Source of the DNA: Agrobacterium sp. 719_389
Lineage (GTDB): Bacteria; Bacteroidota; Bacteroidia; UBA8524
Assembly: GCA_943370295.1 (NCBI GenBank)
Contig: CALRQL020000008.1
Location: forward strand, 46,865 to 110,864
Direction: 5' to 3'
Length of the DNA: 64,000 nucleotides
A program made the position numbers and the translations under genes. The notes below the pieces were generated by a model, which saw only the letters and a list, made by a program, of their open reading frames with translations, was not told where the DNA came from and made no database searches. The stretch's first letter is position 1. Each line of letters starts with the position of its first letter. Below, in pieces: positions 3,794 through 61,315 of the stretch.

Positions 3794-4930
3794 TTACTCA
3801 ACAACATGGGGTATAAACCTACTGTGGTTATTGGTAATTAATCCCTCGCTTTCGCGGATGCCTATCCCCGCCGATTCTCCGTCTATCATCCAACTGCCTA
3901 TTACAGGCAATGGTCCAAAATGGTTTTGCAGTTTATAATACTGCTGAAATACATAACCTTCTTCGCCGTAATCCCCATCACTAAACTCTTTCATCGTATT
4001 GTTTTCTACAATGGTAATATTGGCTCCCTCTCTTGAAAAGAATGGCTTTTTAACAAAATTACCGTTTAGCTTTTCCGCAGAAAAATAAGAAGGCAATAGG
4101 TTAGGGTGGTTAGGGAAAAGCCGCCACAGTAAAGCCAAAATAGCCTTGTTTGATAGTAAAACCTTCCAAGCAGGCTCCATCCAATATACTTGGGCATGGG
4201 TGTTTACCAAAGGCTCTGCAAACTCTTCGTGTGCCATCCACTCCCAAGGGTATAGTTTGAAGCAGTTTTTTATGCCGTTCATTTCCATATCAACAAACTG
4301 TTGGGTAAACTCTTCCCACCCAATATCCCCAATAGGTATAAAGGCCGTTTTTATTCCTGCTTGTTCGGCACAGTCGCGTAAATATTCTACCGTAACAAGG
4401 TCTTCTTGCGAGTCTTCAACCGCAGCAAAATATAAAGTGCCATTATGCAAATACTGTTTAAGGTCCTTCCATTTTGCAAGTAAACGGTCGTGGATGGAAT
4501 TAAATTGGTCGGCATTAGGGAATGTTTCTTCCAGCCAAAACCATTGCACTACAGCCGACTCGAACAGGCTTGTGGGAGTATCTGCATTATATTCCAACAG
4601 TTTCGGCGGGTTATGCCCGTCGTACAACAAATCGAAACGACCGTAAATAGAGGGGTAATCATTGTCCCAACTGCTGCGGATAATCCCCCGCATGTTTTCA
4701 GGTATTTTAAACTCGTCAAAAAGTTCGTTGTCAATAATATGCTGTACGGCTTGCAAGCACATTTCATGCAGCTCGTTAGATGCCGTCTCTAGTACTTCAA
4801 TCTCTTTTAATGTAAAGTGATAATAGGCGTTTTCTTGCCAGTATTGTGAGCCTGTAGAGTGGTAGCTGAAGCCGATTTCTTCAACTTTATGTTGCCAGTT
4901 TTTTCTTGGCGATATAGGTACTCGCTTCAT
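3794..4930 (-). CDS. Glutathionylspermidine-synthase-like ATP-grasp ligase (YgiC/YjfC family)
   Basis: RFDLLYDG...PKLLEYNADTPTSL and the C-terminal IGIRES motifs are typical of GspS pre-ATP-grasp proteins. At 378 aa it is the same size as E. coli YgiC. Confidence 0.75.
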   Translation of the reverse strand: MKRVPISPRKNWQHKVEEIGFSYHSTGSQYWQENAYYHFTLKEIEVLETASNELHEMCLQAVQHIIDNELFDEFKIPENMRGIIRSSWDNDYPSIYGRFDLLYDGHNPPKLLEYNADTPTSLFESAVVQWFWLEETFPNADQFNSIHDRLLAKWKDLKQYLHNGTLYFAAVEDSQEDLVTVEYLRDCAEQAGIKTAFIPIGDIGWEEFTQQFVDMEMNGIKNCFKLYPWEWMAHEEFAEPLVNTHAQVYWMEPAWKVLLSNKAILALLWRLFPNHPNLLPSYFSAEKLNGNFVKKPFFSREGANITIVENNTMKEFSDGDYGEEGYVFQQYYKLQNHFGPLPVIGSWMIDGESAGIGIRESEGLITNNHSRFIPHVVE

Positions 4931-18939: not shown

Positions 18940-19310
18940 TTAACTCGCTCCCCTCTGCAAGGGAAGGAAAACAGGGTTCTTCCCGCATCCTGTCATTAAC
19001 GCCTGCGCGGGAATCTCAGTTTCGACCACTCTAACCCATCGGGAATAAATCCCGAGTTATTTATCATGGCGGCAGGTCTGCGTGCCTGTCGCAGAAGGAC
19101 CCCTACCCGATTATTCATTAGCCCGACGTTCAAATAGTCGGCTTCCCCTGTAGGGGAAGGAAAAGTTGATAGACAGCCAGCAAAACATTAAGTCAGGAAG
19201 GGGTCACGGTCCTGCGCGCGGCTTCCCTCCTACTAAGGAGGGACTGAGGGAGGTGTAATTAGCTCCAACCTATGGGAACAAATCCCGACGCTATTGTCGC
19301 AAAGCAGATA
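18940..19310 (+). repeat. Mosaic hairpin-module intergenic repeat, locus A (degenerate P module, truncated core, T module, extra hairpins)
   Basis: Components: degenerate P at 18990-19020, core at 19037-19092 (lacks the middle hairpin), T module at 19099-19160, CCCTCC-TACTAA-GGAGGG hairpin near 19225-19242, and a second decayed core fragment at 19270-19300. Confidence 0.8.
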
Positions 19311-23010: not shown

Positions 23011-23084
23011 TCCTCGATAGCTCAGCCGGTTAGAGCACCTGACTGTTAATCAGGGGGTCGCTGGTTCGAGTCCAGCTCGGGGAG
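23011..23084 (+). tRNA. tRNA-Asn (anticodon GTT)
   Basis: A cloverleaf folds by hand: acceptor TCCTCGA/TCGGGGA (one G-U), D-arm AGCTCAGCCGGTTAGAGC, anticodon loop CTGTTAA, T-arm GCTGG-TTCGAGT-CCAGC. No CCA is encoded. Confidence 0.9.
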
Positions 23085-23131
23085 CTAAAATCAAAGCCAT
23101 CTCAGTTCGGGATGGCTTTTTTGTTTATGTT
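23064..23131 (+). repeat. Direct repeat copy 1 (tRNA-Asn 3' portion plus downstream terminator)
   Basis: GGTTCGAGTCCAGCTCGGGGAGCTAAAATCAAAGCCATCTCAGTTCGGGATGGCTTTTTTGTTTATGTT is repeated at 23968-24036. Confidence 0.85.
23093..23123 (+). terminator. Rho-independent terminator of tRNA-Asn
   Basis: AAAGCCATC-TCAGTTCGG-GATGGCTTT is followed by a T-run. Confidence 0.75.
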
Positions 23132-23196
23132 GGTTTAGGTAGCCAAGAAACACCTATTGCTTGTGTATAGTGGCATAAGTTTCGTAAATTTGTAAT

Positions 23197-23358
23197 ATGA
23201 AAATGTCTCTAAAAGTTAGTAAGCGAGTTGATTCTTATCTTAAAAGGATGGAAGAGGCTATGCCCGAAATAAAGAGGCAAATTGAGGTTTACGAGAAAAA
23301 TATCCAATCTGGCAAATTGATTAAGCCAAAAATTGCCCCTCAATTTAATAATGCCTAA
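23197..23358 (+). CDS. 53-aa ORF (not in ORF track), candidate antitoxin/partner of the downstream P-loop kinase
   Basis: Hand translation: MKMSLKVSKRVDSYLKRMEEAMPEIKRQIEVYEKNIQSGKLIKPKIAPQFNNA*. Its stop overlaps the downstream ATG in ATGCCTAA. Confidence 0.45.
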   Translation: MKMSLKVSKRVDSYLKRMEEAMPEIKRQIEVYEKNIQSGKLIKPKIAPQFNNA

Positions 23359-23944
23359 ACCCGTTTTGTTGGTAATTGCCGGATGCAACGGTGCCGGGAA
23401 ATCTTCCTTTTCAAAATTACTTTCTCCCTCCGGTCTTGTTCCCTTTGATTATGACTTGCACTTTCTGAAGTTTTATGAAGGAATTATTGAGTCTGAACTG
23501 CGCGAGACAATGGCTCATAATATGGCTTTTGAAGAATTAGAAAATCAGATAAAGAACGCTATTTTAGCAAATAAGGATTTTTGTTACGAAACTAATTTTA
23601 ACCATACTCCTTTACATTGGCCAAAACTTTTTAAAGACAATGGCTATGAACTTCGGATGGTGTTTTTTTCATTAAACTCAATTGAGGAGGCGAAAAGGAG
23701 GGTTGCTATAAGGGTTCAAAATGGCGGGCACTTTGTGCCTGATTATGAAATTGAAAAAAGGTACTATGAAGGTTTTTACAACTTAAACTTGAACTACAAG
23801 TTTTTTGATTCTATTGATTTGTTTGATACATCCGTTTATGGTTCCGAACCAAGCTATGTTTTTTCAATTGAAAACGGGCAATTAATTCTACCTAAAACGT
23901 TGCCAAAGTATTTAGAAAAATTATTACCCGATATATTAGTTTAA
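23351..23944 (+). CDS. Zeta-toxin-like / AAA P-loop kinase family protein
   Basis: Walker A LLVIAGCNGAGKSSF lies at the extreme N-terminus, and the size (~197 aa) fits the zeta/COG4185 family. The ATG at 23351 is preferred over the track TTG at 23333. Confidence 0.55.
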   Translation: MPKPVLLVIAGCNGAGKSSFSKLLSPSGLVPFDYDLHFLKFYEGIIESELRETMAHNMAFEELENQIKNAILANKDFCYETNFNHTPLHWPKLFKDNGYELRMVFFSLNSIEEAKRRVAIRVQNGGHFVPDYEIEKRYYEGFYNLNLNYKFFDSIDLFDTSVYGSEPSYVFSIENGQLILPKTLPKYLEKLLPDILV

Positions 23945-23967
23945 TCAGTACCGAATTTATTTGGGAC

Positions 23968-24036
23968 GGTTAGAGTCCAGCTCGGGGGGCAAAAATCAAA
24001 GCCATCTCAGTTCGGGATGGCTTTTTTGTTTATGTT
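23968..24036 (+). repeat. Direct repeat copy 2 (pseudo-tRNA 3' end plus terminator copy)
   Basis: GGTTAGAGTCCAGCTCGGGGGGCAAAAATCAAAGCCATCTCAGTTCGGGATGGCTTTTTTGTTTATGTT has about 3 small differences from copy 1 and includes a second terminator hairpin at 23998-24027. Confidence 0.85.
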
Positions 24037-24046
24037 TGAGTTTCAA

Positions 24047-24622
24047 ATGAGCGGGGTACAGGAAGTTTACTTTGGTGACATTAACTCTTTTGCAATTAGA
24101 TATGTTGCGGGACACAAACACATTTACCAAGGAACAACGTGGTATTACGCATTTCTTCATTTGTGCTTAAATGGGCAAATTATAGGAAACCCGAAGGAAT
24201 CTTGTTCAGTGTTGACGTGGTTGCAAAGCATTAGTATGCTTTTAACACGGGTTAAAAACAATGAGCTTAACCACAACGAGTTTTTAAACAAAAAGGATGA
24301 TGAGCTTTTTGAGCTTATTTGGAAAGCCAATCAAGAAAAGAAAGAGTTTAAACCCGAATACACTTACTTACCACAGTTAGATAGTTTGGTTTGGAGTAAC
24401 TGCCACCTAAGTATTGACGAAACTACTGACGCTTACCTAATTACAACAACACAAACAGGAAATACAATTAGGATAATATGGCAAGGGTGGCGGGAGCCTT
24501 GTCCAAGTGGTTTGATCGATATAATGTTTTCACTTACTATTCACAAAGAGGAATTGATTCAAACGCTTAACGAATGTTACGAAACAGTGATGGCCGATTT
24601 GATTAATTACAAGGACAAGTAA
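24047..24622 (+). CDS. Hypothetical protein (orphan, AT-rich gene)
   Basis: ORF starting at the ATG at 24047; the track start at 24017 lies inside the terminator repeat. No motif was recognised. Confidence 0.5.
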   Translation: MSGVQEVYFGDINSFAIRYVAGHKHIYQGTTWYYAFLHLCLNGQIIGNPKESCSVLTWLQSISMLLTRVKNNELNHNEFLNKKDDELFELIWKANQEKKEFKPEYTYLPQLDSLVWSNCHLSIDETTDAYLITTTQTGNTIRIIWQGWREPCPSGLIDIMFSLTIHKEELIQTLNECYETVMADLINYKDK

Positions 24623-40361: not shown

Positions 40362-40366
40362 TTAGA

Positions 40367-40374
40367 CAAAGGTA
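40367..40374 (-). promoter_or_regulatory. Bacteroidota -7 box for tsaE
   Basis: The minus strand reads TACCTTTG, 5 nt upstream of the tsaE ATG. Confidence 0.35.
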
Positions 40375-40414
40375 AGGCTTGGCGGCTTTTTTGGAAAATT
40401 TTGCTTCGTTTGTC

Positions 40415-40750
40415 GGTCGCTGGACAGACCTGCCGCTATGGATAGAGAGCCCAACCTGCTATCCATAGCGTTGGGATTTATTCCCGATGGGTTATGGGTG
40501 ATTAAAACATGAGATTCCCAATCAAGTTGGGAATGATGGGCTAGCGACAGGTACGTAGACCTGCCGCTATGGATAGAGTGCCCAACCTGCTATCAATAGC
40601 ATCGGGATTTATTCCCGATGGTTGGGGAGTGTTCAGAAAGTGAAATTCCCAATCAAATTGGGAATGACGGGCTAGCGACAGGTACGCAGACCTGCCGCTA
40701 TGGATAGAGCACCCTCCTGCTATCAATGGCGTTGGGATTAATACCCGTGC
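40415..40750 (-). repeat. Mosaic repeat locus B: three tandem core(+P) units, period ~130 bp, inverted orientation
   Basis: Cores lie at 40417-40490, 40544-40621 and 40675-40750. P hairpins lie at 40508-40540 and 40640-40671. Confidence 0.9.
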
Positions 40751-40759
40751 ATAAATTCA

Positions 40760-40767
40760 TACCTTTG
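40760..40767 (+). promoter_or_regulatory. Bacteroidota -7 box for the MazG-like gene
   Basis: TACCTTTG lies 4 nt upstream of the ATG at 40772, implying a very short or absent leader. Confidence 0.3.
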
Positions 40768-40771
40768 TTAT

Positions 40772-41098
40772 ATGACAATTGAAGAAGCCCAGCAACAGGT
40801 GCACCAATGGATTACTACTACAGGGGTGCGATATTTTAATGAGCTTACCAATACCGCCATTTTAATGGAAGAAGTGGGTGAATTGGCCCGTATTATGGCC
40901 CGCAAATACGGAGAACAAAGTTTTAAGGAAAACGAGAATGATAAAGACCTTGCCGATGAAATGGCCGATGTGATGTGGGTACTTATTTGTCTTGCCAACC
41001 AAACAGGAGTGAACCTAACCGAGGCATTTGCAAAAAACATGGAAAAGAAAACCCGCCGCGACAGCGACCGACATAAGAATAATGAGAAACTGAGTTAA
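40772..41098 (+). CDS. MazG-type nucleotide pyrophosphohydrolase (single domain)
   Basis: EEVGELARI...LADEMADVMWVLICLAN shows the EExxE/DxxD metal motifs. Confidence 0.8.
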   Translation: MTIEEAQQQVHQWITTTGVRYFNELTNTAILMEEVGELARIMARKYGEQSFKENENDKDLADEMADVMWVLICLANQTGVNLTEAFAKNMEKKTRRDSDRHKNNEKLS

Positions 41099-41184
41099 GT
41101 GGGTTCATTCTAATAAGCTTGTTTGAGCAGCTCATGCCCAAAACGTACACACCCTCGAAACAAGCGCGACTTGATACAACAAAA

Positions 41185-41215
41185 AAGCCGATCCATAATT
41201 AAATGGAGTCGGCTT
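41185..41215. terminator. Hairpin terminator between convergent genes
   Basis: AAGCCGATCCAT...ATGGAGTCGGCTT is flanked by an A-run and T-rich sequence. Confidence 0.6.
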
Positions 41216-41234
41216 ATATCATTTGTCCAACGGC

Positions 41235-42443
41235 TTATGCGCCGGCAGCACTGTCGCCATTAATAGCAGCAATACCTGGCAGCTGTTTGCCTTCAAAATA
41301 TTCAAGCAAAGCACCCCCGCCGGTTGATACGTAGCTTACGTTATCAGCAAGGTTAAACTTGTTAATAGCCGCTGCACTGTCGCCGCCGCCAATAAGGGTA
41401 AACGCACCGTTATCAGTAGCTTTTGCTACCGCATTAGCTACGGTTTTAGTTCCTTTTTCAAAACTGCTCATTTCAAAAACCCCCATCGGGCCGTTCCACA
41501 ATACGGTTTTGCTGTTAGCAATCACCTCGGCAAATTTTGCAGCAGCATCTGGGCCGATATCTAACCCCATCCAGCCTGACGGAATACTCTCGTTGGCAGC
41601 AGTTTGGGTAGCGGCATCGTTGGCAAATTTATCGGCAATAATGCTATCAGCAGGCAGGTACAAATTCACCCCTTTTTCTTTGGCTTTTGCCAAAATATCC
41701 AAGCAGGTTTGCAAACGGTCGGCTTCGCAAAGCGAGTTGCCTATACCCATTCCTTGCGCTTTGAAAAAGGTATAGGCCATACCACCGCCAATAATCATAT
41801 TATCAACCTTGTCCATCAGGTTTTCAATAATCAGCAACTTGTCTGATACTTTTGCGCCGCCCATAATGGCCGTAAATGGCTTTTGAGCGTTGTGCATCAC
41901 CTTTTCGGCATTGGCTACTTCGTTGGCCATTACATACCCAAAGTATTTTGCCGATGGGAAAAACTCAGCAATAATGGCGGTGCTGGCGTGTGCACGGTGT
42001 GCAGTACCAAACGCATCGTTTACGTATACATCACCCAGTTGTGCCAATTTCTCAGCAAACTCGCGGTTTCCTTTTTCTTCTTCTTTGTAAAAACGCAGGT
42101 TTTCAAGCAATAACACCTCTCCGCTTTGCAACCCTGTACTTAGGGTTTTAGCATCTTCGCCAATACAATCAGCCGCAAACTTTACGGTGGTATTTAGCAA
42201 GCTGCTTAAGTGGTTTACCAAGTGTTTTAGCGAGTACTTTTCAGTTGGCCCTTCTTTTGGCCGACCCAAGTGCGACATCAATATCACGCTTCCGCCATCG
42301 TTCAAAATCTTTTTAAGCGTTGGCAAAGCGGCAGTAATGCGCGAGTCGTCGGTGATGTTATAATTCTCATCAAGAGGCACGTTAAAATCTACGCGCACAA
42401 GGGCACGTTTACCCGAAAAGTTCAGAAGGTCAATGGTTTTCAT
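41235..42443 (-). CDS. pgk: Phosphoglycerate kinase
   Basis: [17 protein letters not shown] and [10 protein letters not shown] are present in a 402-aa protein. Confidence 0.95.
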
Positions 42444-42459
42444 CAGCTAAAATTTGCCG

Positions 42460-42467
42460 CAAAGGTA
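42460..42467 (-). promoter_or_regulatory. Bacteroidota -7 box for pgk
   Basis: The minus strand reads TACCTTTG, 16 nt upstream of the pgk ATG. Confidence 0.35.
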
Positions 42468-42502
42468 GGGTTTCATTCGGGTATTTTAAACATACCGTTT
42501 TG

Positions 42503-43990
42503 TTATTGTGCATCCTGTTTGGGCATAATCTTCCATAAAAAACCTTTGTTGGTGCGCTCTTGCCAATGCCCTATATTCATTGGCTGCGGCACAATGGGCG
42601 CAACGCAATACTCAAGCGAGGCAATGCTGTTTTTTTGTAGCACAACCCCTCCTATTTTATCTGTGTAAAGAAAAAAGATCCCGTCGACGGCTGTATTCAT
42701 TTCGTTTTGCTTCACAAAGCAACTGTTGCAATACCTGAAAAAGTTCATTTTTAACCCGCAATCAAACGGGTCTTTCTCAGCAAAAACAATTTTAGTGTTT
42801 TTATGAGTGTTATGAACGATGTAAAACGCTTTGAACAACGCCTCACGCTCACTGGCAGGCTTTATTAGCGAAATAGCCATTAATGCTATATTGAATGCAA
42901 CAAGCCCTTTAACAGAGTACTTAATCACTGAAAGACTGATGTTAGAAAGTCTTGATTTAATTGCAAGCAATCCCTGCACACACAAGTAGGGCATAAGAGC
43001 TACCATAGGAAACATAAACCTGAACTCTTTGTGTGCTACTGCACTGTGTGCCACCACAAAGGCAACCAACACCCATGTATAGGGGCTCCTGCGACTTGTC
43101 CAAAGCCCGAAACACATCAGCACCAACAAAAGAAGGCTAAGAGGTGGTCCGGCTATCTCAATAAACATGGTTATATAGCTATAAAACGGGCTGGTGCCAA
43201 AGCTTGACGCTTTATCGGCCACTATATTTTGAAAGAAATAATTATACGGTGTGCAAACCCATTGATTGTATAACCAATAATCGGTTAGTGTGCCTATTGC
43301 TGCTGCGACAATCCCGCCCGACACCAGTAACGAAAAGGACGCAGGGGTAAATTTTTTATACCGAAATGCCCATGCTACAAACCCTACAATGGCAAACGCC
43401 ATTTGGAAGCGGAAATAAAATGACAGCCCCATAAGCAAGCCGCCCAACAACCAAGAAAGGTTTACTTTGAGGATTTTCGGTGGGTATAAAACCACATAAA
43501 GCCCCGCAAAAAACAACAAGCCGCCCCAACTTTCACTTGAATAACGAACGTGTAAATAGGGTAAAAACCATAAGCAGGCACTAAACAGTAACAATGCTTT
43601 TTGCATAACCGTGTCTTTGTGTTCCTGCTTCCATTTGTTGTAAAAAGCCCACGTTAATACCCACCACAGTAAACCTGTTAACTGGCGCAAAATTGCCGTA
43701 AGCATAAACGGTGAATACGCATCAGCGGCAATCATGGTTTTGCCTACAATCCATCCCAGCATAATTTGCAACCCGGGTCGTATCTTATCCGTAAACTCCC
43801 ATGCAAGGTCGTTTGGCGCATAAAAGCCCAGTTTCCAACCCAACGGCTCTAATAACTGGAAATGTTCATCTGCATGGTGAAACCCTGTACTGGTAATAGC
43901 TGCAAGTATGTGCGTAAGCAAACTAAACAGCATAAAAGAGTTTGCATAGCCGTTTTGGGTAAAAAAACCCTTCGGTAATATTGTTTTCAT
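42503..43990 (-). CDS. GT-C membrane glycosyltransferase, GT22-like (Alg9/PIG-B-type mannosyltransferase homolog)
   Basis: About 10 TM segments. The first-loop HHADEHFQLLE resembles the GT22 HPDExFQ motif. Confidence 0.5.
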   Translation of the reverse strand: MKTILPKGFFTQNGYANSFMLFSLLTHILAAITSTGFHHADEHFQLLEPLGWKLGFYAPNDLAWEFTDKIRPGLQIMLGWIVGKTMIAADAYSPFMLTAILRQLTGLLWWVLTWAFYNKWKQEHKDTVMQKALLLFSACLWFLPYLHVRYSSESWGGLLFFAGLYVVLYPPKILKVNLSWLLGGLLMGLSFYFRFQMAFAIVGFVAWAFRYKKFTPASFSLLVSGGIVAAAIGTLTDYWLYNQWVCTPYNYFFQNIVADKASSFGTSPFYSYITMFIEIAGPPLSLLLLVLMCFGLWTSRRSPYTWVLVAFVVAHSAVAHKEFRFMFPMVALMPYLCVQGLLAIKSRLSNISLSVIKYSVKGLVAFNIALMAISLIKPASEREALFKAFYIVHNTHKNTKIVFAEKDPFDCGLKMNFFRYCNSCFVKQNEMNTAVDGIFFLYTDKIGGVVLQKNSIASLEYCVAPIVPQPMNIGHWQERTNKGFLWKIMPKQDAQ

Positions 43991-44095
43991 AGTTTAGGCA
44001 TCAAAACTATTTCACTACAAAGGATAGGCGTAATTGATTTTTGCAAGAACCTAAGATTGTTTTTGCAGATTTTGCAATACGTTTAACGGGATACC

Positions 44096-44103
44096 TATAT
44101 TTG
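44096..44103 (+). promoter_or_regulatory. Bacteroidota -7 box for the Rieske gene
   Basis: TATATTTG lies 5 nt upstream of the ATG at 44109. Confidence 0.35.
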
Positions 44104-44108
44104 AAACA

Positions 44109-44456
44109 ATGGCCGAAAAGTACACTTGGTATAAGATATACGATTTCAAAACCCATGGTTCCGAGCCGCAGGAACTATTCTCATTGAGAGCCATTGAGGC
44201 CGACGGAAAACGATTGGTGCTGGTGCGCAACCAAAAAGGATATTATGCCGTAGATGATAAATGCCCGCACGCAGGTTATCCGCTTAGTCATGGCAAGTGC
44301 ATGGAAGACGGCACATTAATGTGCATTTATCACCGCTACCGGTTTGATTTGGAGACGGGTCAAAGTGGCTCGGACTTTGTACAAACTCATCCTGTACGGG
44401 TGGATGATGTAGGTGTATTTATTGGATTAAAAAAGAAAAAATGGTGGTTGTGGTAA
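44109..44456 (+). CDS. Rieske [2Fe-2S] domain protein
   Basis: CPHAGYPL...CIYHRYRF shows the CxH...CxxH ligands. Confidence 0.8.
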   Translation: MAEKYTWYKIYDFKTHGSEPQELFSLRAIEADGKRLVLVRNQKGYYAVDDKCPHAGYPLSHGKCMEDGTLMCIYHRYRFDLETGQSGSDFVQTHPVRVDDVGVFIGLKKKKWWLW

Positions 44457-44482
44457 TACCTGCCTAACCGCTCATAAAACAA

Positions 44483-44761
44483 ATGCAGGCTGCTGAAACG
44501 ATAAAATACCGACTGTTGGCCATGAGTATTGTGGTGGATGTATTGGGTATGCTTAGTTACTTGATCCCTGCCCTTGGCGAATGGACGGATATTGCAATGG
44601 CAGTGCTTACTGCTTTGGCAATTTTTAAAGGTTACCACAGTTACGGATGGGCGGCATTTGGATTTTTGGAAGAGATTTTGCCGTTTACGGATATTATTCC
44701 CTCGGCCACACTGGTGTGGATTTATAGATTTGTTATTAGGAAGCAGACATACAAAGCATAA
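44483..44761 (+). CDS. Small membrane protein
   Basis: Two to three hydrophobic helices in 92 aa. Confidence 0.5.
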   Translation: MQAAETIKYRLLAMSIVVDVLGMLSYLIPALGEWTDIAMAVLTALAIFKGYHSYGWAAFGFLEEILPFTDIIPSATLVWIYRFVIRKQTYKA

Positions 44762-44766
44762 TCGTT

Positions 44767-45048
44767 ATGGAAATTAAACATCATTTTGAAGGCCGCAAAG
44801 GCGAATTCTATATTGAAGAAAACGGGAACATAATTGCTCAATATGACTATACCATGACCGACGAAACCACTATGCTGGCTACCCATACAGGAGTTTCACC
44901 GCGCCTGCGGGGACAAGGTATTGCCATGAAGTTGGTAGAGGCTGCCGTTGAGTACGCCCGCACTCACAATTATAAAATTGCTCCTTCTTGCTCCTACGTG
45001 CGTTGGGCGCACGAAACTCGCCCTGATTTGGCCGATGTGGTACGGTAA
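44767..45048 (+). CDS. Small GNAT-like acetyltransferase (YjdJ-type)
   Basis: RLRGQGIAMKLVEAAVEYAR...KIAPSCSYV in a 93-aa protein. Confidence 0.6.
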   Translation: MEIKHHFEGRKGEFYIEENGNIIAQYDYTMTDETTMLATHTGVSPRLRGQGIAMKLVEAAVEYARTHNYKIAPSCSYVRWAHETRPDLADVVR

Positions 45049-45072
45049 TTACCGATACAATATTCAAACCCT

Positions 45073-45080
45073 TACTTTTG
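45073..45080 (+). promoter_or_regulatory. Bacteroidota -7 box for the cytochrome c peroxidase gene
   Basis: TACTTTTG lies 10 nt upstream of the ATG at 45091. Confidence 0.35.
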
Positions 45081-45090
45081 CAGGATACTT

Positions 45091-46038
45091 ATGCCAAAAA
45101 AAGCCGTTATAGCTGCGCTAACTGCTTCAGTTATTTTATTTGCCGCCTTTTTACCGCAGGCTGAACCAACAGTTCCGCAAACGCCAGAACAATTGGGCGA
45201 AATGCTGTTTAACGATAAAATACTTTCAGGCGATTATACCCTAAGCTGTGCAAGTTGTCATATTCCCCAATTTGCCTTTGCCGATACCGTAAAATTTAGC
45301 AAAGGGGTTGGCGGTAAACTTACTGGACGCAATACGCCAACGGTAATGAATGTACTATCACGGGAATCGTTTTTTTGGGACGGCAGGGTAGCAACGCTGG
45401 AAGAACAAGCTTTGCACCCCATAAGCAATCCCGATGAAATGAACCTGCCTGTTGAAGAAGCTGTGAAGCGGCTGAACAACGACGAGAATTACCGCAATTA
45501 TTTTACGACGATATACGGCCAACTGCCCGACAAGACTACTTTGGGAAAGGCCATTGCTGCTTTTGAAAAAACACTGGAAACTGCTTCGACCCGTTTTGAT
45601 CGCTACATGAACGATGAAGTAATGTTTACCGAAAGCGAAACACGCGGGCAAACGCTGTTTAACAACAAGGCCAAATGTTTTGATTGTCACTTCTCGCCTG
45701 ATTTTACGGGCGATGAGTTCAGAAACATTGGCTTGTTTGATGGTAAACAACTAAACGATTCGGGCAGGTATAAAATCACCCAAAACCCTAAAGATTTAGG
45801 TAAGTTTAAGGTGCCCGGCTTGCGTAATGTGGCAATTACAGCCCCCTATATGCATAACGGGATGTTTAGCACACTTCGAGAGGTGATTGATTATTACGAC
45901 AATCCCGCTGCAACAGTGAAGCATGCCCAAAACCGCGATGAGCTGTTAAGTAAGCCTTTGAACCTTACCGAAGAAGAGAAAAAGGATTTGGAAGCATTTT
46001 TGCTTACCCTTACTGACGATGATTTTATAAAAAAGTAA
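45091..46038 (+). CDS. Di-haem cytochrome c peroxidase (CCP/MauG family)
   Basis: Two CxxCH sites (CASCH, CFDCH), PTVMN, and a signal sequence are present. Confidence 0.85.
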   Translation: MPKKAVIAALTASVILFAAFLPQAEPTVPQTPEQLGEMLFNDKILSGDYTLSCASCHIPQFAFADTVKFSKGVGGKLTGRNTPTVMNVLSRESFFWDGRVATLEEQALHPISNPDEMNLPVEEAVKRLNNDENYRNYFTTIYGQLPDKTTLGKAIAAFEKTLETASTRFDRYMNDEVMFTESETRGQTLFNNKAKCFDCHFSPDFTGDEFRNIGLFDGKQLNDSGRYKITQNPKDLGKFKVPGLRNVAITAPYMHNGMFSTLREVIDYYDNPAATVKHAQNRDELLSKPLNLTEEEKKDLEAFLLTLTDDDFIKK

Positions 46039-46098
46039 GCTTACATAGCAAAACACACCAATGGTATAAGTGTTGTAACTTACTGTAAACGATTGCAT

Positions 46099-46106
46099 TA
46101 TTTTTG
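46099..46106 (+). promoter_or_regulatory. Bacteroidota -7 box for rluD
   Basis: TATTTTTG lies 29 nt upstream of the TTG at 46136. Confidence 0.3.
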
Positions 46107-46135
46107 TAGCACCCTGTGCTAAGTTTTATGGATTT

Positions 46136-47209
46136 TTGAACACACGAATGATAGAGGAAGAAGAGTTTAATTTAGAAGGTTTTATTGAAGACCAGCAAGA
46201 CAGTGAGTTGTACGAACACCACCGTATTGTGGTTGATCCGGGACAATCGTTGCTACGCATTGATAAGTTTTTGATGCATCGGTTGCAGAATGTAAGTCGT
46301 AACAAAATACAATTGGCGGCAATTGCCAACAGTATTTTGGTGAACGACGACCCTGTGAAATCAAACTACAGGGTGAAGCCCTTGGATGTAATTACCGTTG
46401 TGCTGCCCACTCCGCCGAGGGACACGGCCATTTACCCTGAAAATATCCCCTTAACGGTTGTTTATGAGGACGATGATTTGATTATCATCAATAAAAAACC
46501 CGGCATGGTGGTGCACCCCGGCTTTAATAACTACACGGGTACGTTGGTAAATGCTCTGGCCTGGCATTTTGAGGGGCAGAACATCGACCGTAAAGAACCT
46601 ACCCCCTGTTTGGTGCATCGCATTGATAAAAACACCAGCGGGCTTATGGTGGTGGCTAAAAATGAAACCGCAATGGCCGGCCTTGCCCAACAGTTTTTCG
46701 ACCACAGTATAGAACGCACCTACAATGCCCTTGTGTGGGGCGATTTTGAAGAAGACAGCGGCACCATACGCGGCAACTTGGCACGGCACCCCAAAAACCG
46801 TTTAGAAATGACGGTGTTTGAAGACGGCAGCCACGGTAAAGAAGCCGTTACCCACTACCGCGTTTTAGAGCGTTTTCACTACGTTACCCTTGTTGAGTGT
46901 AAGCTTGAAACAGGCCGCACCCACCAAATACGTGCCCATATGCGCTACATAGGTCACCCCATTTTTAACGACGATACCTACGGAGGCGATAAAATTATAA
47001 AAGGCACTACGTTTAGCAAATACAAACAGTTTATTGATAACTGCTTTGAGCTGATACCCCGCCAAGCACTGCACGCAAAAACACTGGGTTTTATACATCC
47101 CGGCACTCAAGAAAAAGTGTTTTTCGACAGCAACCTGCCCGATGATTTTATGAACGTGCTTGATAAATGGCGCAGGTACATTGCCCACAAAAAAGACTTT
47201 GAAGAATAG
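46136..47209 (+). CDS. rluD: 23S rRNA pseudouridine synthase, RluD/RluA family with S4 domain
   Basis: HRIDKNTSGLMVVAK contains the catalytic Asp, and GRTHQIRAH is present. The start is uncertain: TTG at 46136 or ATG at 46148. Confidence 0.8.
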   Translation: MNTRMIEEEEFNLEGFIEDQQDSELYEHHRIVVDPGQSLLRIDKFLMHRLQNVSRNKIQLAAIANSILVNDDPVKSNYRVKPLDVITVVLPTPPRDTAIYPENIPLTVVYEDDDLIIINKKPGMVVHPGFNNYTGTLVNALAWHFEGQNIDRKEPTPCLVHRIDKNTSGLMVVAKNETAMAGLAQQFFDHSIERTYNALVWGDFEEDSGTIRGNLARHPKNRLEMTVFEDGSHGKEAVTHYRVLERFHYVTLVECKLETGRTHQIRAHMRYIGHPIFNDDTYGGDKIIKGTTFSKYKQFIDNCFELIPRQALHAKTLGFIHPGTQEKVFFDSNLPDDFMNVLDKWRRYIAHKKDFEE

Positions 47210-47214
47210 GCCGT

Positions 47215-47830
47215 CCTCAGCTGGACAGCTTTAGTCTTTAATGGCCTCGCGTGGCTTCCCTCGCACTAAGTAGTGTGATGGAGGTGTTTTTGCCTCAAGC
47301 CATCGGGAATAAATCCCGATGCTATTGATAGAGAACTGGCAATCTATCCATAGCGGCAGGTCTGCGTACCTGCTGTTGATTATTCGACCACCCCTAACCC
47401 CTCCTTGCCCTACGCACATACTTCGACAGGCTCAGTATTGATGCCTTGCTAAGGAGGGGAACAGCCGCACAGGCTCACCTGCCCAATAGCAGTGGCAGTT
47501 ACTAAAACTGATTCGGCGTTCAATGGGCAGCGTGTGGTATCCCTCCTAGCTAAGGAGAGACAGAGGGAGCTATGCCAGCACCCCGTCATTCCCAACTTGA
47601 TTGGGAATCTCATGTTTCAATCACCCCAAACTATCGGGAATAAATCCCGATGCTATTGATAGCAGGTTGGGCTCTCTATCCATAGCGGCAAGTCTGCGTA
47701 CCTGCCGCCGAAAATCCCTACCAGATTAATCATTAGCCATTCACCCCTCTCAAAATTTAAAGAGGGGAAACGTTCGTCAGTCGCACAACTATCAATTAGT
47801 CAGGGGTGAGTTAAATAGCGTCAATACCCC
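47215..47830 (+). repeat. Mosaic repeat locus C (~0.6 kb): two cores, one P hairpin and several accessory hairpin modules
   Basis: Cores lie at 47301-47374 and 47632-47708, with P at 47582-47614. CCCTCC...GGAGGG-type hairpins lie near 47255-47290 and 47545-47570. The CCCCTCTC-AAAATTTAA-AGAGGGG hairpin lies near 47745-47770. Confidence 0.9.
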
Positions 47831-52249: not shown

Positions 52250-52525
52250 CATAAAGAAGGGGTCAGGGATGGTCTTTAAAATTGTTTAACTCACCTCCGA
52301 AATTTTCTTAGTCTGAAGCTCACATAGTAGTCCTTCCCACAGGAGAAGGCGACTATTTGAAAGTCGGGCTAATGATTAATCAGGTAGGGGTATTTGGTCG
52401 GCATGTACACAGACCTGCCGCTATGGATAGAGCACCCAACCTGCTATCAATAGCATCGGGATTTATTCCCGATGGTCTTGGAGTAGAAAAGTGAGATTCC
52501 CAACCAAGTTGGGAATGACGGGATG
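52250..52525 (-). repeat. Mosaic repeat locus D (T module, core, P hairpin; inverted orientation)
   Basis: T lies at 52332-52391, core at 52398-52475, and P at 52491-52522. Confidence 0.9.
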
Positions 52526-52551
52526 GAATCTGTGTAAAACAGAAAATAAAA

Positions 52552-52578
52552 ATGGCTCGACGTTTCACGTCGAGCCAT
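52552..52578 (-). terminator. Rho-independent terminator of the epimerase/TDH-like gene
   Basis: ATGGCTCGACG-TTTCA-CGTCGAGCCAT is followed by TTTTTATTTT on the minus strand. Confidence 0.8.
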
Positions 52579-52608
52579 CGTGTAAGTTCATTAAATCGAA
52601 TGTATTGA

Positions 52609-57599: not shown

Positions 57600-57895
57600 T
57601 CCCGAAAAAAACCCATCGGGAATAAATCCCGATGCTGTTAACAGAAAATTGAGTCCTCTATCCATAGCAGCAGGACTATGTACCTGTCGCAGACCCCTAC
57701 CCGAAATATCCTTAGCCCGACGTTCCCAAAGTCGGCTCCCCCTTTTAAATGCTGCCTGCAAAGCAAATAGTCGGGATGAGGTGAACAGCCTTGCGCGTAC
57801 CATCCCCCTTTAACTCTCCCCCGAAACTTCCTAAGCCCGACGTTCAAATACTCGCCCCTCTCTAAATTTAGAGAGGGGAAAGTTGGGTAATTGTG
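57600..57895 (+). repeat. Mosaic repeat locus E (core with variant middle hairpin, two T modules)
   Basis: The core lies at 57614-57690, with its middle arm replaced by the palindrome CTGTTAACAG. T modules lie at 57693-57745 and 57817-57880, the latter ending in the CCCCTCTCT-AAATTT-AGAGAGGGG hairpin. Confidence 0.85.
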
Positions 57896-61062: not shown

Positions 61063-61084
61063 TACCCTTCCTTACTATTTGTTT

Positions 61085-61315
61085 TGCAGGCAGCATTTAA
61101 CTTTTCCTTCCCCTTGAGGGGAAGGCGACTTTGGGAACGTCGAACTTAGGATATTTCGGGTAGGGGTTTTTTCTCGGCAGGTATACAGACCTGTCGCTAT
61201 AGATAGAGTGCCCAACTTTCTATCAATAGCATCTGGATTTATTCCCGATGGTTTAATCAAAGCTACCTCAACCGCTCCTTTTCCTATGCGTAATGCATAG
61301 AAAGAAGGGACACTA
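61085..61315 (-). repeat. Mosaic repeat locus F (T module, core; inverted orientation)
   Basis: T lies at 61105-61166 and core at 61175-61251. TTTGCAGGCAGCATTTAA (61083-61100) is the reverse complement of the 57745-57762 segment in locus E. Confidence 0.85.

Follow-up and report, generated by a model that had tools for sequence, protein, structure and literature searches.

Short palindromes that recur between the genes of a bacterium raise two questions, what they are and how they multiply. Here, the questions concern a 64,000-nucleotide (nt) stretch of contig CALRQL020000008.1 (assembly GCA_943370295.1, Agrobacterium sp. 719_389, placed by GTDB in the Bacteroidota), hereafter the window. A core of about 78 nt, made up of three palindromes (H1, H2, and H3), recurs in it together with accessory modules that we call P, T, V, U, and W. 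A first reading of the letters alone (the sequence-only reading) had described the core, P, and T as a dispersed family of intergenic repeats. This repeat family is real, and it consists of lineage-specific, hairpin-forming DNA modules situated between genes. The explanation that we favor, with a probability of roughly 0.55, is that of mosaic repeats at the DNA level, akin to repetitive extragenic palindromes (REPs) and to the intergenic mosaic elements of Neisseria (NIMEs), which would mainly have been spread and rearranged by recombination, perhaps with an Ssn-type nuclease as partner. There is no pointer here to a new kind of mechanism.

A repeat family between genes

Gene searches covered 172 kilobases (kb) from the organism and a related strain, made up of the window and further loci. 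L-numbers designate the further stretches that were read; they are loci of metagenome assembly OFDN01 unless named otherwise. In the window, a 33-nt core probe found six copies at three mismatches or fewer, with none in 100 shuffles. With a repeat search and nhmmer profiles, the total comes to nine good core copies plus one decayed fragment, at six intergenic loci. On the plus strand, cores occupy 47300-47375, 47632-47707, 57613-57689, and, in truncated form, 19036-19091, the decayed fragment being at 19273-19297. On the minus strand, they occupy 40414-40490, 40545-40621, 40676-40748, 52399-52475, and 61175-61251. All the cores listed in the sequence-only reading were recovered, with boundaries displaced by 1-3 nt, and its P and T modules were re-found in place by profile search. 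Its estimate of about five differences between two well-preserved cores also holds, 40544-40627 and 47625-47708 being 93% complementary over 84 nt. Self-BLAST of the window confines repeated DNA to these six loci, a duplicated tRNA 3' end excepted. Finally, a short-read contig (run ERR9580632) is 100% identical to positions 40677-47329 and stops at both ends within cores, the effect that genuine multi-copy repeats have on an assembler.

The flanking genes are convergent at three of the six loci, divergent at two, and tandem at one, the same counts as had been given before. Over the window and the related strain, 26 of 26 cores are intergenic, including 17 of 17 related-strain cores, which lie outside long open reading frames (ORFs). 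The adjacent genes have housekeeping functions (rluD, tsaE, mazG-like, pgk, ferredoxin, pnuC, purL-like, and sugar transferase).

The family has a narrow distribution. An exact core 28-mer has no match in 185,579 species genomes, among which the phosphoglycerate kinase of the window is at most 73% identical to that of any species representative, and core, P, T, and U were not found in 80 loci (>1 Mb) of other Bacteroidota and related bacteria. A metagenome scan with a core 21-mer returned 14 stretches, of which 13 are on nine contigs of OFDN01. The strain in this assembly is about 96-97% identical to the window and has orthologous segments in L084, L086, L089, and L093. A 21-mer match in a second metagenome (L092) was set aside; it has lost the outer H1 stem and may be due to chance, about 0.2 chance matches being estimated if a record is taken as ~2 kb. 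In the whole OFDN01 assembly, there are 16 exact 21-mer matches, six on two contigs syntenic with the window (148 kb) and ten on further contigs totalling 1.29 Mb. The high density noticed at first sight is, from these counts, a regional property only. The family is dispersed in the genome, lineage-restricted, and not abundant, and the window is a local hot spot. In viral contigs, phage records, and plasmids, core and T had no match and the P hairpin alone matched, on a Sulfurovum plasmid; a literature search with the repeat sequences themselves gave unrelated primer matches only. The core, the T-V unit, U, and W match nothing described, and those of core and T are new sequences.

Modules with constant order and polarity

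Profiles for core, P, T, and U, run on the window and 13 related-strain loci, return one module order, P or U, then core, then T or the next P, in constant relative orientation. The modules of the window are the following.

47300-47375, plus strand: core (H1-H2-H3) with U upstream; H2 interior variant AGAACTGGCAAT
47632-47708, plus strand: core with P upstream, the copy inside the interval singled out by the sequence-only reading
47580-47630, plus strand: P module, with CGTC tag, hairpin ATTCCCAA-CTTGA-TTGGGAAT (47588-47608), C/CTC tail, and a spacer of ~22 nt to H1
47240-47299, plus strand: U module, the alternative upstream neighbor of the core, with hairpins CTTCCCTC...GAGGGAGG; partial second copy at 47526-47572
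47385-47484, plus strand: W module, ~100 nt; L089 5017-5109 is 97% identical, and by eye it recurs at L090 ~3884-3990 and L086 ~4420-4520
47711-47767, plus strand: variant T module whose second hairpin differs (CCCCTCT...AGAGGGG)
40414-40751, minus strand: tandem array core-P-core-P-core with a period of 131 nt; cores 40414-40490, 40545-40621, and 40676-40751; P 40492-40542 and 40623-40674
52327-52524, minus strand: complete P-core-T composite; P 52480-52524, core 52399-52475, T 52327-52396
57613-57782, plus strand: core (57613-57690) then T-V unit (57693-57782), beginning 16 nt past the pnuC stop codon
57814-57880, plus strand: second, solitary T with no core attached and an alternative second hairpin
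61064-61251, minus strand: core (61175-61251) then T-V unit (61064-61172)
18991-19204, plus strand: decayed dRS3-like P (18991-19017), truncated core lacking most of H2 (19036-19091), and T-V unit (19099-19204)
19214-19297, plus strand: U module (19214-19282) then decayed H1 fragment (19273-19297)

The P hairpins proper are at 40514-40534, 40645-40665, 47588-47608, and 52496-52516, and nhmmer places T at 19094-19164, 52327-52396, 57691-57750, 57820-57880, and 61102-61172. The module inventory of the sequence-only reading stands for P and T and was incomplete, since U, W, and the T-V unit add to it. In this unit of ~105 nt, T is the 5' part, and the ends carry imperfect inverted 9-mers (ACCCCTWCC...GGWAGGGGT) with no target duplication. 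Besides 52327-52524, complete P-core-T composites occur in L083, L089, L093, and L095, and their composition and polarity are constant at no fewer than five independent sites. Modules also occur apart: in L082, a core by itself occupies a convergent spacer of 120 nt, P without core forms an inverted dimer at L085 9493-9579, and T without core is seen at 57814-57880. The array 40414-40751 sits between the divergent tsaE and mazG-like genes. When independent P-core-T composites are compared, their mutual similarity starts at the CGTC tag of P, and the right end is ragged. The two ends of the composite are unrelated, with neither terminal inverted repeats nor a target-site duplication.

Two further repeated segments were seen in related-strain loci. 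In L091 (7830-8170), tandem units of ~145 nt each contain the motif GGAATAAATCC...TGCTATT(GATAG) once or twice. The motif corresponds to H1 with the 5' half of H2 and lacks the remainder of the core, which suggests that this segment is an independent module or binding site. Another repeated intergenic segment, ~300 nt of mutually similar, non-coding, GGGACA-rich sequence, lies downstream of two distinct cores on separate contigs (L085 110-480 and L094 77-450).

The P hairpin and its relatives

The 13 copies of P read, with minor variation, (C/T)GTC-ATTCCCAA-CTTGA-TTGGGAAT-C(TC). All of them have an 8-bp stem starting with AT, a 5-nt loop, and a short tail. The tag directly 5' of the stem is (C/T/A)GTC in 12 copies and CATC in the remaining one, and a C follows the palindrome on its 3' side in 11. 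This is the design of the CGTC-tagged REPs, in which an unpaired CGTC (or TGTC/CCTC) tag precedes a stem of 8-9 bp starting with A-T, a loop of 4-5 nt, and a short unpaired tail (PMC3733652). These repeats occur in five phyla, Bacteroidetes included, comprise Neisseria dRS3 and Rickettsia RPE-4/6, and have no associated transposase (PMC3733652). P shows both the tag and the stem, loop, and tail of this class, with the geometry of CGTC-2, and it shares with it the intergenic location and the absence of a transposase found nearby. P differs from the class by its tail, which is CTC, TTC, or CTG where the consensus is CCA. It is also mostly single and joined to a ~22-nt spacer and a core, whereas CGTC REP units are mostly head-to-head dimers (PMC3733652). 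Core, T, U, and W are outside the class, and H1, H3, and T1 were rejected as tagged REPs, neither CGTC nor GTAG being adjacent to their stems.

Variant P copies keep the ATTCCC/GGGAAT frame, with inner stems AA/TT, AT/AT, or GC/GC. The center is AT-TTTAA-AT in the L085 P, and GC-CTGC-GC, with the N8 spacing of dRS3, in the decayed P at 18991-19017, which reads TGTC-ATTAACGC-CTGC-GCGGGAAT-CTC.

In Neisseria, the oriented form of dRS3 is called NTS (CGTCATTCCCGCGMAVGCGGGAATCYRG) and is bound and cut, as single-stranded DNA (ssDNA) only, by SsnA, a GIY-YIG nuclease of 94 amino acids (aa). Cleavage, at ~3 nt upstream of the motif, depends on the three bases 5' of the palindrome, and binding depends on the C immediately 3' of it (PMC11893778). 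P (CGTCATTCCC...GGGAATC) is the same oriented hairpin and agrees with NTS at 18 of 28 positions, including GTC and the 3' C; these critical positions are kept in 12/13 (GTC) and 11/13 (3' C) of the P copies. Moreover, independent composites begin at the tag of P, near where SsnA would cut. Unlike NTS, P has a center of 9 nt rather than 8. Judged by these likenesses, P belongs to the CGTC-tagged REP class, which is also that of Neisseria dRS3/NTS. The earlier statement that the sequence was of no named family was mistaken for P, which fits the CGTC-tagged REP and dRS3-NTS class (PMC3733652, PMC11893778).

BLAST of the composite against plasmids gave a match limited to P on a Sulfurovum mangrovi megaplasmid (NZ_CP087125.1). 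The hairpin there, CCCGTCATTCCAAACTTGATTGGGAATCTA, has the loop of P and is nearly identical to it; an Ssn homologue was looked for on this plasmid and not detected. Another Sulfurovum strain, NBC37-1, carries CGTC repeats (PMC3733652). Close to the P-like hairpin of the plasmid (3960-4150 of the stretch read, L096), there are two more hairpins, TTCCCGATC-GGAA-GATCGGGAA and a CGTC-tagged CGTCATCCC...GGGATGAC.

Turnover of arrays between two strains

Between strains, arrays gain, lose, and swap modules, and synteny stops at module edges. At 40362-40767, the window and OFDN01 share flanks of 100% identity and both outer cores, although even these differ inside H2; in OFDN01, the interior P-core-P is replaced by U-, W-, and T-type modules. 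At the 52.3-kb locus, P-core-T and the epimerase gene are conserved, similarity ends at 52297 in a T-like segment, and a different gene lies beyond. At the 61.2-kb locus, it ends at the H1 edge of the core (61251-61257), where OFDN01 has a P and then unrelated genes, and at the 57.8-kb locus it ends at 57847, inside the second T copy. One P differs in another way. At L084 937-957, its loop is inverted with respect to the orthologous 52496-52516 (TCAAG vs. CTTGG/CTTGA in the orientation of the tag) while stem, tag, and tail are unchanged; all other copies have the uninverted loop. Template switching at an extruded hairpin would leave such a footprint.

In NIMEs, arrays are built of RS units of ~50-150 bp with 20-bp dRS3 repeats (ATTCCC-N8-GGGAAT) on either side; syntenic arrays vary in content and length between meningococcal strains and contain recombination end points (PMC1797815). 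Variation of this kind is what the window and OFDN01 show at 40362-40767, 52297, and 61251. In addition, P is ATTCCC-N9-GGGAAT, alternates with 77-nt cores at 40414-40751, and elsewhere stands on one side of the core only; as in NIMEs, several unit families are mixed. Differences also exist: the phylum is another one, copies are far fewer, unit families are few, order and polarity are fixed, and the neighbors are housekeeping genes instead of surface antigens. In behavior, the neisserial intergenic mosaic element is the closest counterpart.

A possible mechanism at the DNA level

We propose that the hairpins extrude when DNA becomes single-stranded. A small GIY-YIG single-strand nuclease from the Ssn family, with its gene elsewhere in the genome, would probably recognize the strand that carries the tag of P and nick it a few nt 5' of CGTC. 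The main forces that spread and reshuffle the copies would be recombination (homologous or illegitimate), gene conversion, and template switching among them, and not the cutting and pasting of a fixed unit. Core and T behave like the RS spacer units of neisserial mosaic arrays. For the host, the main consequence may be local hot spots of recombination and rearrangement, effects on termination or mRNA stability being presumably a by-product.

Candidate enzymes were sought with NCBIfam and Pfam on 49 proteins of the window and loci, with GIY-YIG regular expressions, and by tblastn with two Ssn sequences. One of these queries, recognizable by its score as a GIY-YIG domain, recovered the gonococcal homologue at 64-66% identity. 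The same query matched a homologue on a plasmid of Spirosoma, also of the Bacteroidota. On this Spirosoma oryzicola plasmid (L097, 2330-2850), a gene for a 97-aa GIY-YIG Ssn-like protein has tagged hairpins on both sides, an inverted dimer of TGTCATCCC...GGGATC hairpins upstream and a TGTCATCC...GGATGACA palindrome downstream. These flanking hairpins are TGTC-tagged and of the same design as P.

Several results weigh against the explanation by DNA-level mosaic repeats. In the 172 kb, no gene was found for ssn, RAYT, or any further nuclease or transposase. The degenerate SRM pattern as published, HGTCWYN(0-2)YYVSBRHN(0-5)WNVSBRGN(0-2)RNCYNB, has 0 matches in the 172 kb, and P fails it because of its A/T inner stem and its tail; the control that passes is a canonical NTS typed to fit the published consensus and not taken from a Neisseria genome. 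Head-to-head dimers are not the rule, P being single beside a core in 11 of 13 copies and flanking no unit on both sides; in the single inverted dimer (L085 9493-9579), the tags face outward. Copy number is apparently low (tens) and regionally clustered where REP families and NIMEs typically count hundreds. Lastly, the synteny breaks rest on a metagenome assembly, OFDN01, in which joins at repeats may be chimeric.

A narrower proposal gives the nuclease the leading part. P-core(-T) would be the non-autonomous partner of an Ssn-type GIY-YIG nuclease, forming a NIME/NTS-like system outside Neisseria that marks single-stranded chromosomal DNA for cutting and shapes the recombination of incoming or replicating DNA, with H1, H2, and H3 as extra recognition or structure modules co-propagating with P. 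We regard this as doubtful. If the Ssn/NTS link were true, the dRS3/NTS-type hairpin and mosaic arrays would extend from Neisseria to an uncultivated lineage of Bacteroidota, and the family would offer a small natural system in which to study the multiplication of CGTC-type repeats, for which no transposase is known. Should cuts 5' of successive CGTC tags give rise to the 131-nt P-plus-core unit, this would be the first hint of Ssn nucleases multiplying the repeats that they target. Whatever their origin, the repeats break short-read assemblies of this organism and may cause chimeric joins in metagenome bins.

Mobile elements

Could P-core-T, or some of its sub-units, be a non-autonomous transposable element, such as a MITE (a miniature transposable element with inverted repeats), a REPIN, or an IS200/IS605 derivative, moved by a RAYT/Y1 enzyme, by an IS110-type enzyme that targets hairpins, or by an ssn-containing element encoded elsewhere? 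The unit is present on at least nine related-strain contigs, and its constant composition and polarity would suit such an element, as would the inverted 9-mers of the T-V unit, the REPIN-like inverted P dimer, and the likening of the NTS-ssnA-NTS architecture to an insertion sequence (PMC11893778). We nevertheless consider it unlikely. The composite lacks the terminal inverted repeats and target-site duplication expected of a mobile unit, so that a MITE, with constant ends, was rejected, and module content varies between sites, even orthologous ones. The statement of the sequence-only reading that no transposase was in sight extends, with Pfam and NCBIfam, to the neighborhood of all repeats in the 172 kb. 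As to orientation, three window loci are plus and three minus in 64 kb, unlike the strand bias of a single-strand transposon (n is small), and GC skew in the window is uninformative; orientation being mixed and skew silent, this counts weakly against a single-strand transposon dependent on the replication fork.

The sequence-only reading had compared the repeats with the bacterial interspersed mosaic elements (BIMEs) of enterobacteria. The analogy is fair, since in the REP/BIME-RAYT systems of Escherichia coli and in REPINs short extragenic palindromes and spacer motifs also form mosaics, frequently located between convergent genes; in architecture, the closest counterpart is nevertheless the NIME and not the BIME (PMC1797815). 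By inspection, no hairpin has an adjacent GTAG tag such as RAYT-linked REPs carry, while CGTC REPs are without associated transposase (PMC3733652). Moreover, modules are co-oriented and not alternating, no RAYT was found in the 172 kb, and copies are in the tens and not in the hundreds. A BIME/RAYT system was rejected for its missing tag and alternation.

Folding and the question of RNA

The hairpins might instead work in the transcript, as cis-acting stabilizers in 3' untranslated regions (3'-UTRs) or at terminators, or as small RNAs. We judge this quite improbable, and the alignment of 22 full-length cores bears on it directly. Mean column identity is 89%, the copies being too alike for covariation to be informative. 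The three helices proposed in the sequence-only reading pair in 90.9% of cells vs. 90.7% in column shuffles, 198 of 500 shuffles reaching the observed value. Pairs changed on both sides number 2 where 2.2 are expected, and the covariation term of RNAalifold is +0.74, slightly unfavorable. Conserved structure, as claimed initially, is not borne out, pairing being at shuffle level, with pairs broken as often as expected and disruptive changes no rarer than compensatory ones. One pair has the look of covariation, alignment column 27/51, with T-A in seven copies, G-C in two, and a mismatch in 13; recombination between two ancestral palindromes, both perfect, is a better account of this pattern. 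The replaced H2 loop, which had been taken as a sign of conserved structure, belongs to discrete subfamily variants, and some copies extend to a perfect 16+16 palindrome, completed by the "loop" itself at L086 4750-4826.

Single-strand folding yields the H1, H3, and P hairpins, with z from -3.9 to -5.5 for four P-plus-core stretches and -2.3 and -3.2 for two T-module stretches. The three-hairpin core described before holds for H1 and H3; the H2 stem is not always in the minimum-energy fold. The two strands fold about equally strongly (ssDNA z -5.5 vs. -4.7 and -4.15 vs. -3.9). Pairing of G with T in H3, on the tag strand only, had been offered as a hint of RNA function and still speaks somewhat for it; the hint is weak, G-C standing there in half of the copies, and the pair is equally compatible with ssDNA.

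Position is a further point for RNA, three convergent loci having the unit just downstream of a gene in sense orientation, and P together with the T-rich tail after it is scored as a terminator-like site, though only a weak one. A preprint reports that REPs of E. coli act as 3'-UTR regulators (bioRxiv 10.64898/2026.03.23.713779). Copies are nonetheless also found in divergent promoter regions, and one is antisense between tandem genes. The T2 hairpin has no U-tract. At 52.3 kb, a canonical terminator of the epimerase gene (52551-52579) lies before the composite 52327-52524, and therefore the element is not needed for termination there. Rfam, at gathering and E-value thresholds, gave no match for the repeats, only tRNA elsewhere in the window and two sub-threshold chance matches. 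The modules are DNA palindromes and not a supported RNA family.

A helix of another kind was also noticed. The H2 interior can pair with the spacer just 5' of H1 (47620-47676 and 47285-47345), through CCCAA/TTGGG in the P-type copy and TTGCC/GGCAA in the U-type copy, and the minimum-energy fold takes this helix over the H2 stem. It is either a true long-range pairing or, more probably, subfamily linkage, since it is not retained in the ortholog at L086:14732.

It is very unlikely that the host maintains the repeats as protein-binding or architectural sites that organize the chromosome, of the sort suggested for BIMEs (IHF, gyrase, Pol I) or for a nucleoid or replication factor: the best-preserved H2 has the shape of a dimer site (a perfect 16+16-bp palindrome), the H1-plus-half-H2 motif recurs alone in the L091 array, and modules cluster regionally, but copy number is low, the family is absent from the 80 loci and its core 28-mer from the species genomes searched, and orthologous arrays differ between near-identical strains, unlike a conserved functional site.

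Other features of the window

Two further features lie apart from the repeats. The tRNA gene at 23011-23084 has its 3' end, together with the hairpin and T-run downstream (23063-23131), repeated 905 nt further along, at 23968-24036, with 96% identity. A Zeta-toxin-like ORF (23333-23944) separates the two copies, and an Imm42 immunity gene (24017-24622) comes after it. This arrangement (23011-24622) resembles a small insertion targeted to a tRNA, the direct repeats being att-like; nearby, no integrase could be recognized. In the related strain, 3.4 kb (L086 9128-12497) are inserted in a 42-nt spacer between acetyltransferase and CCP_MauG genes, corresponding to window positions 45051-45066. No repeat module is found at the junctions, and the insertion encodes two proteins sorted by the type IX secretion system (T9SS), one of them BNR/sortilin-like. 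The window itself also encodes a T9SS sorting-domain protein and an LpxC/FabZ fusion, which mark the host as one of the Bacteroidota, and has a G+C content of 42.6%.

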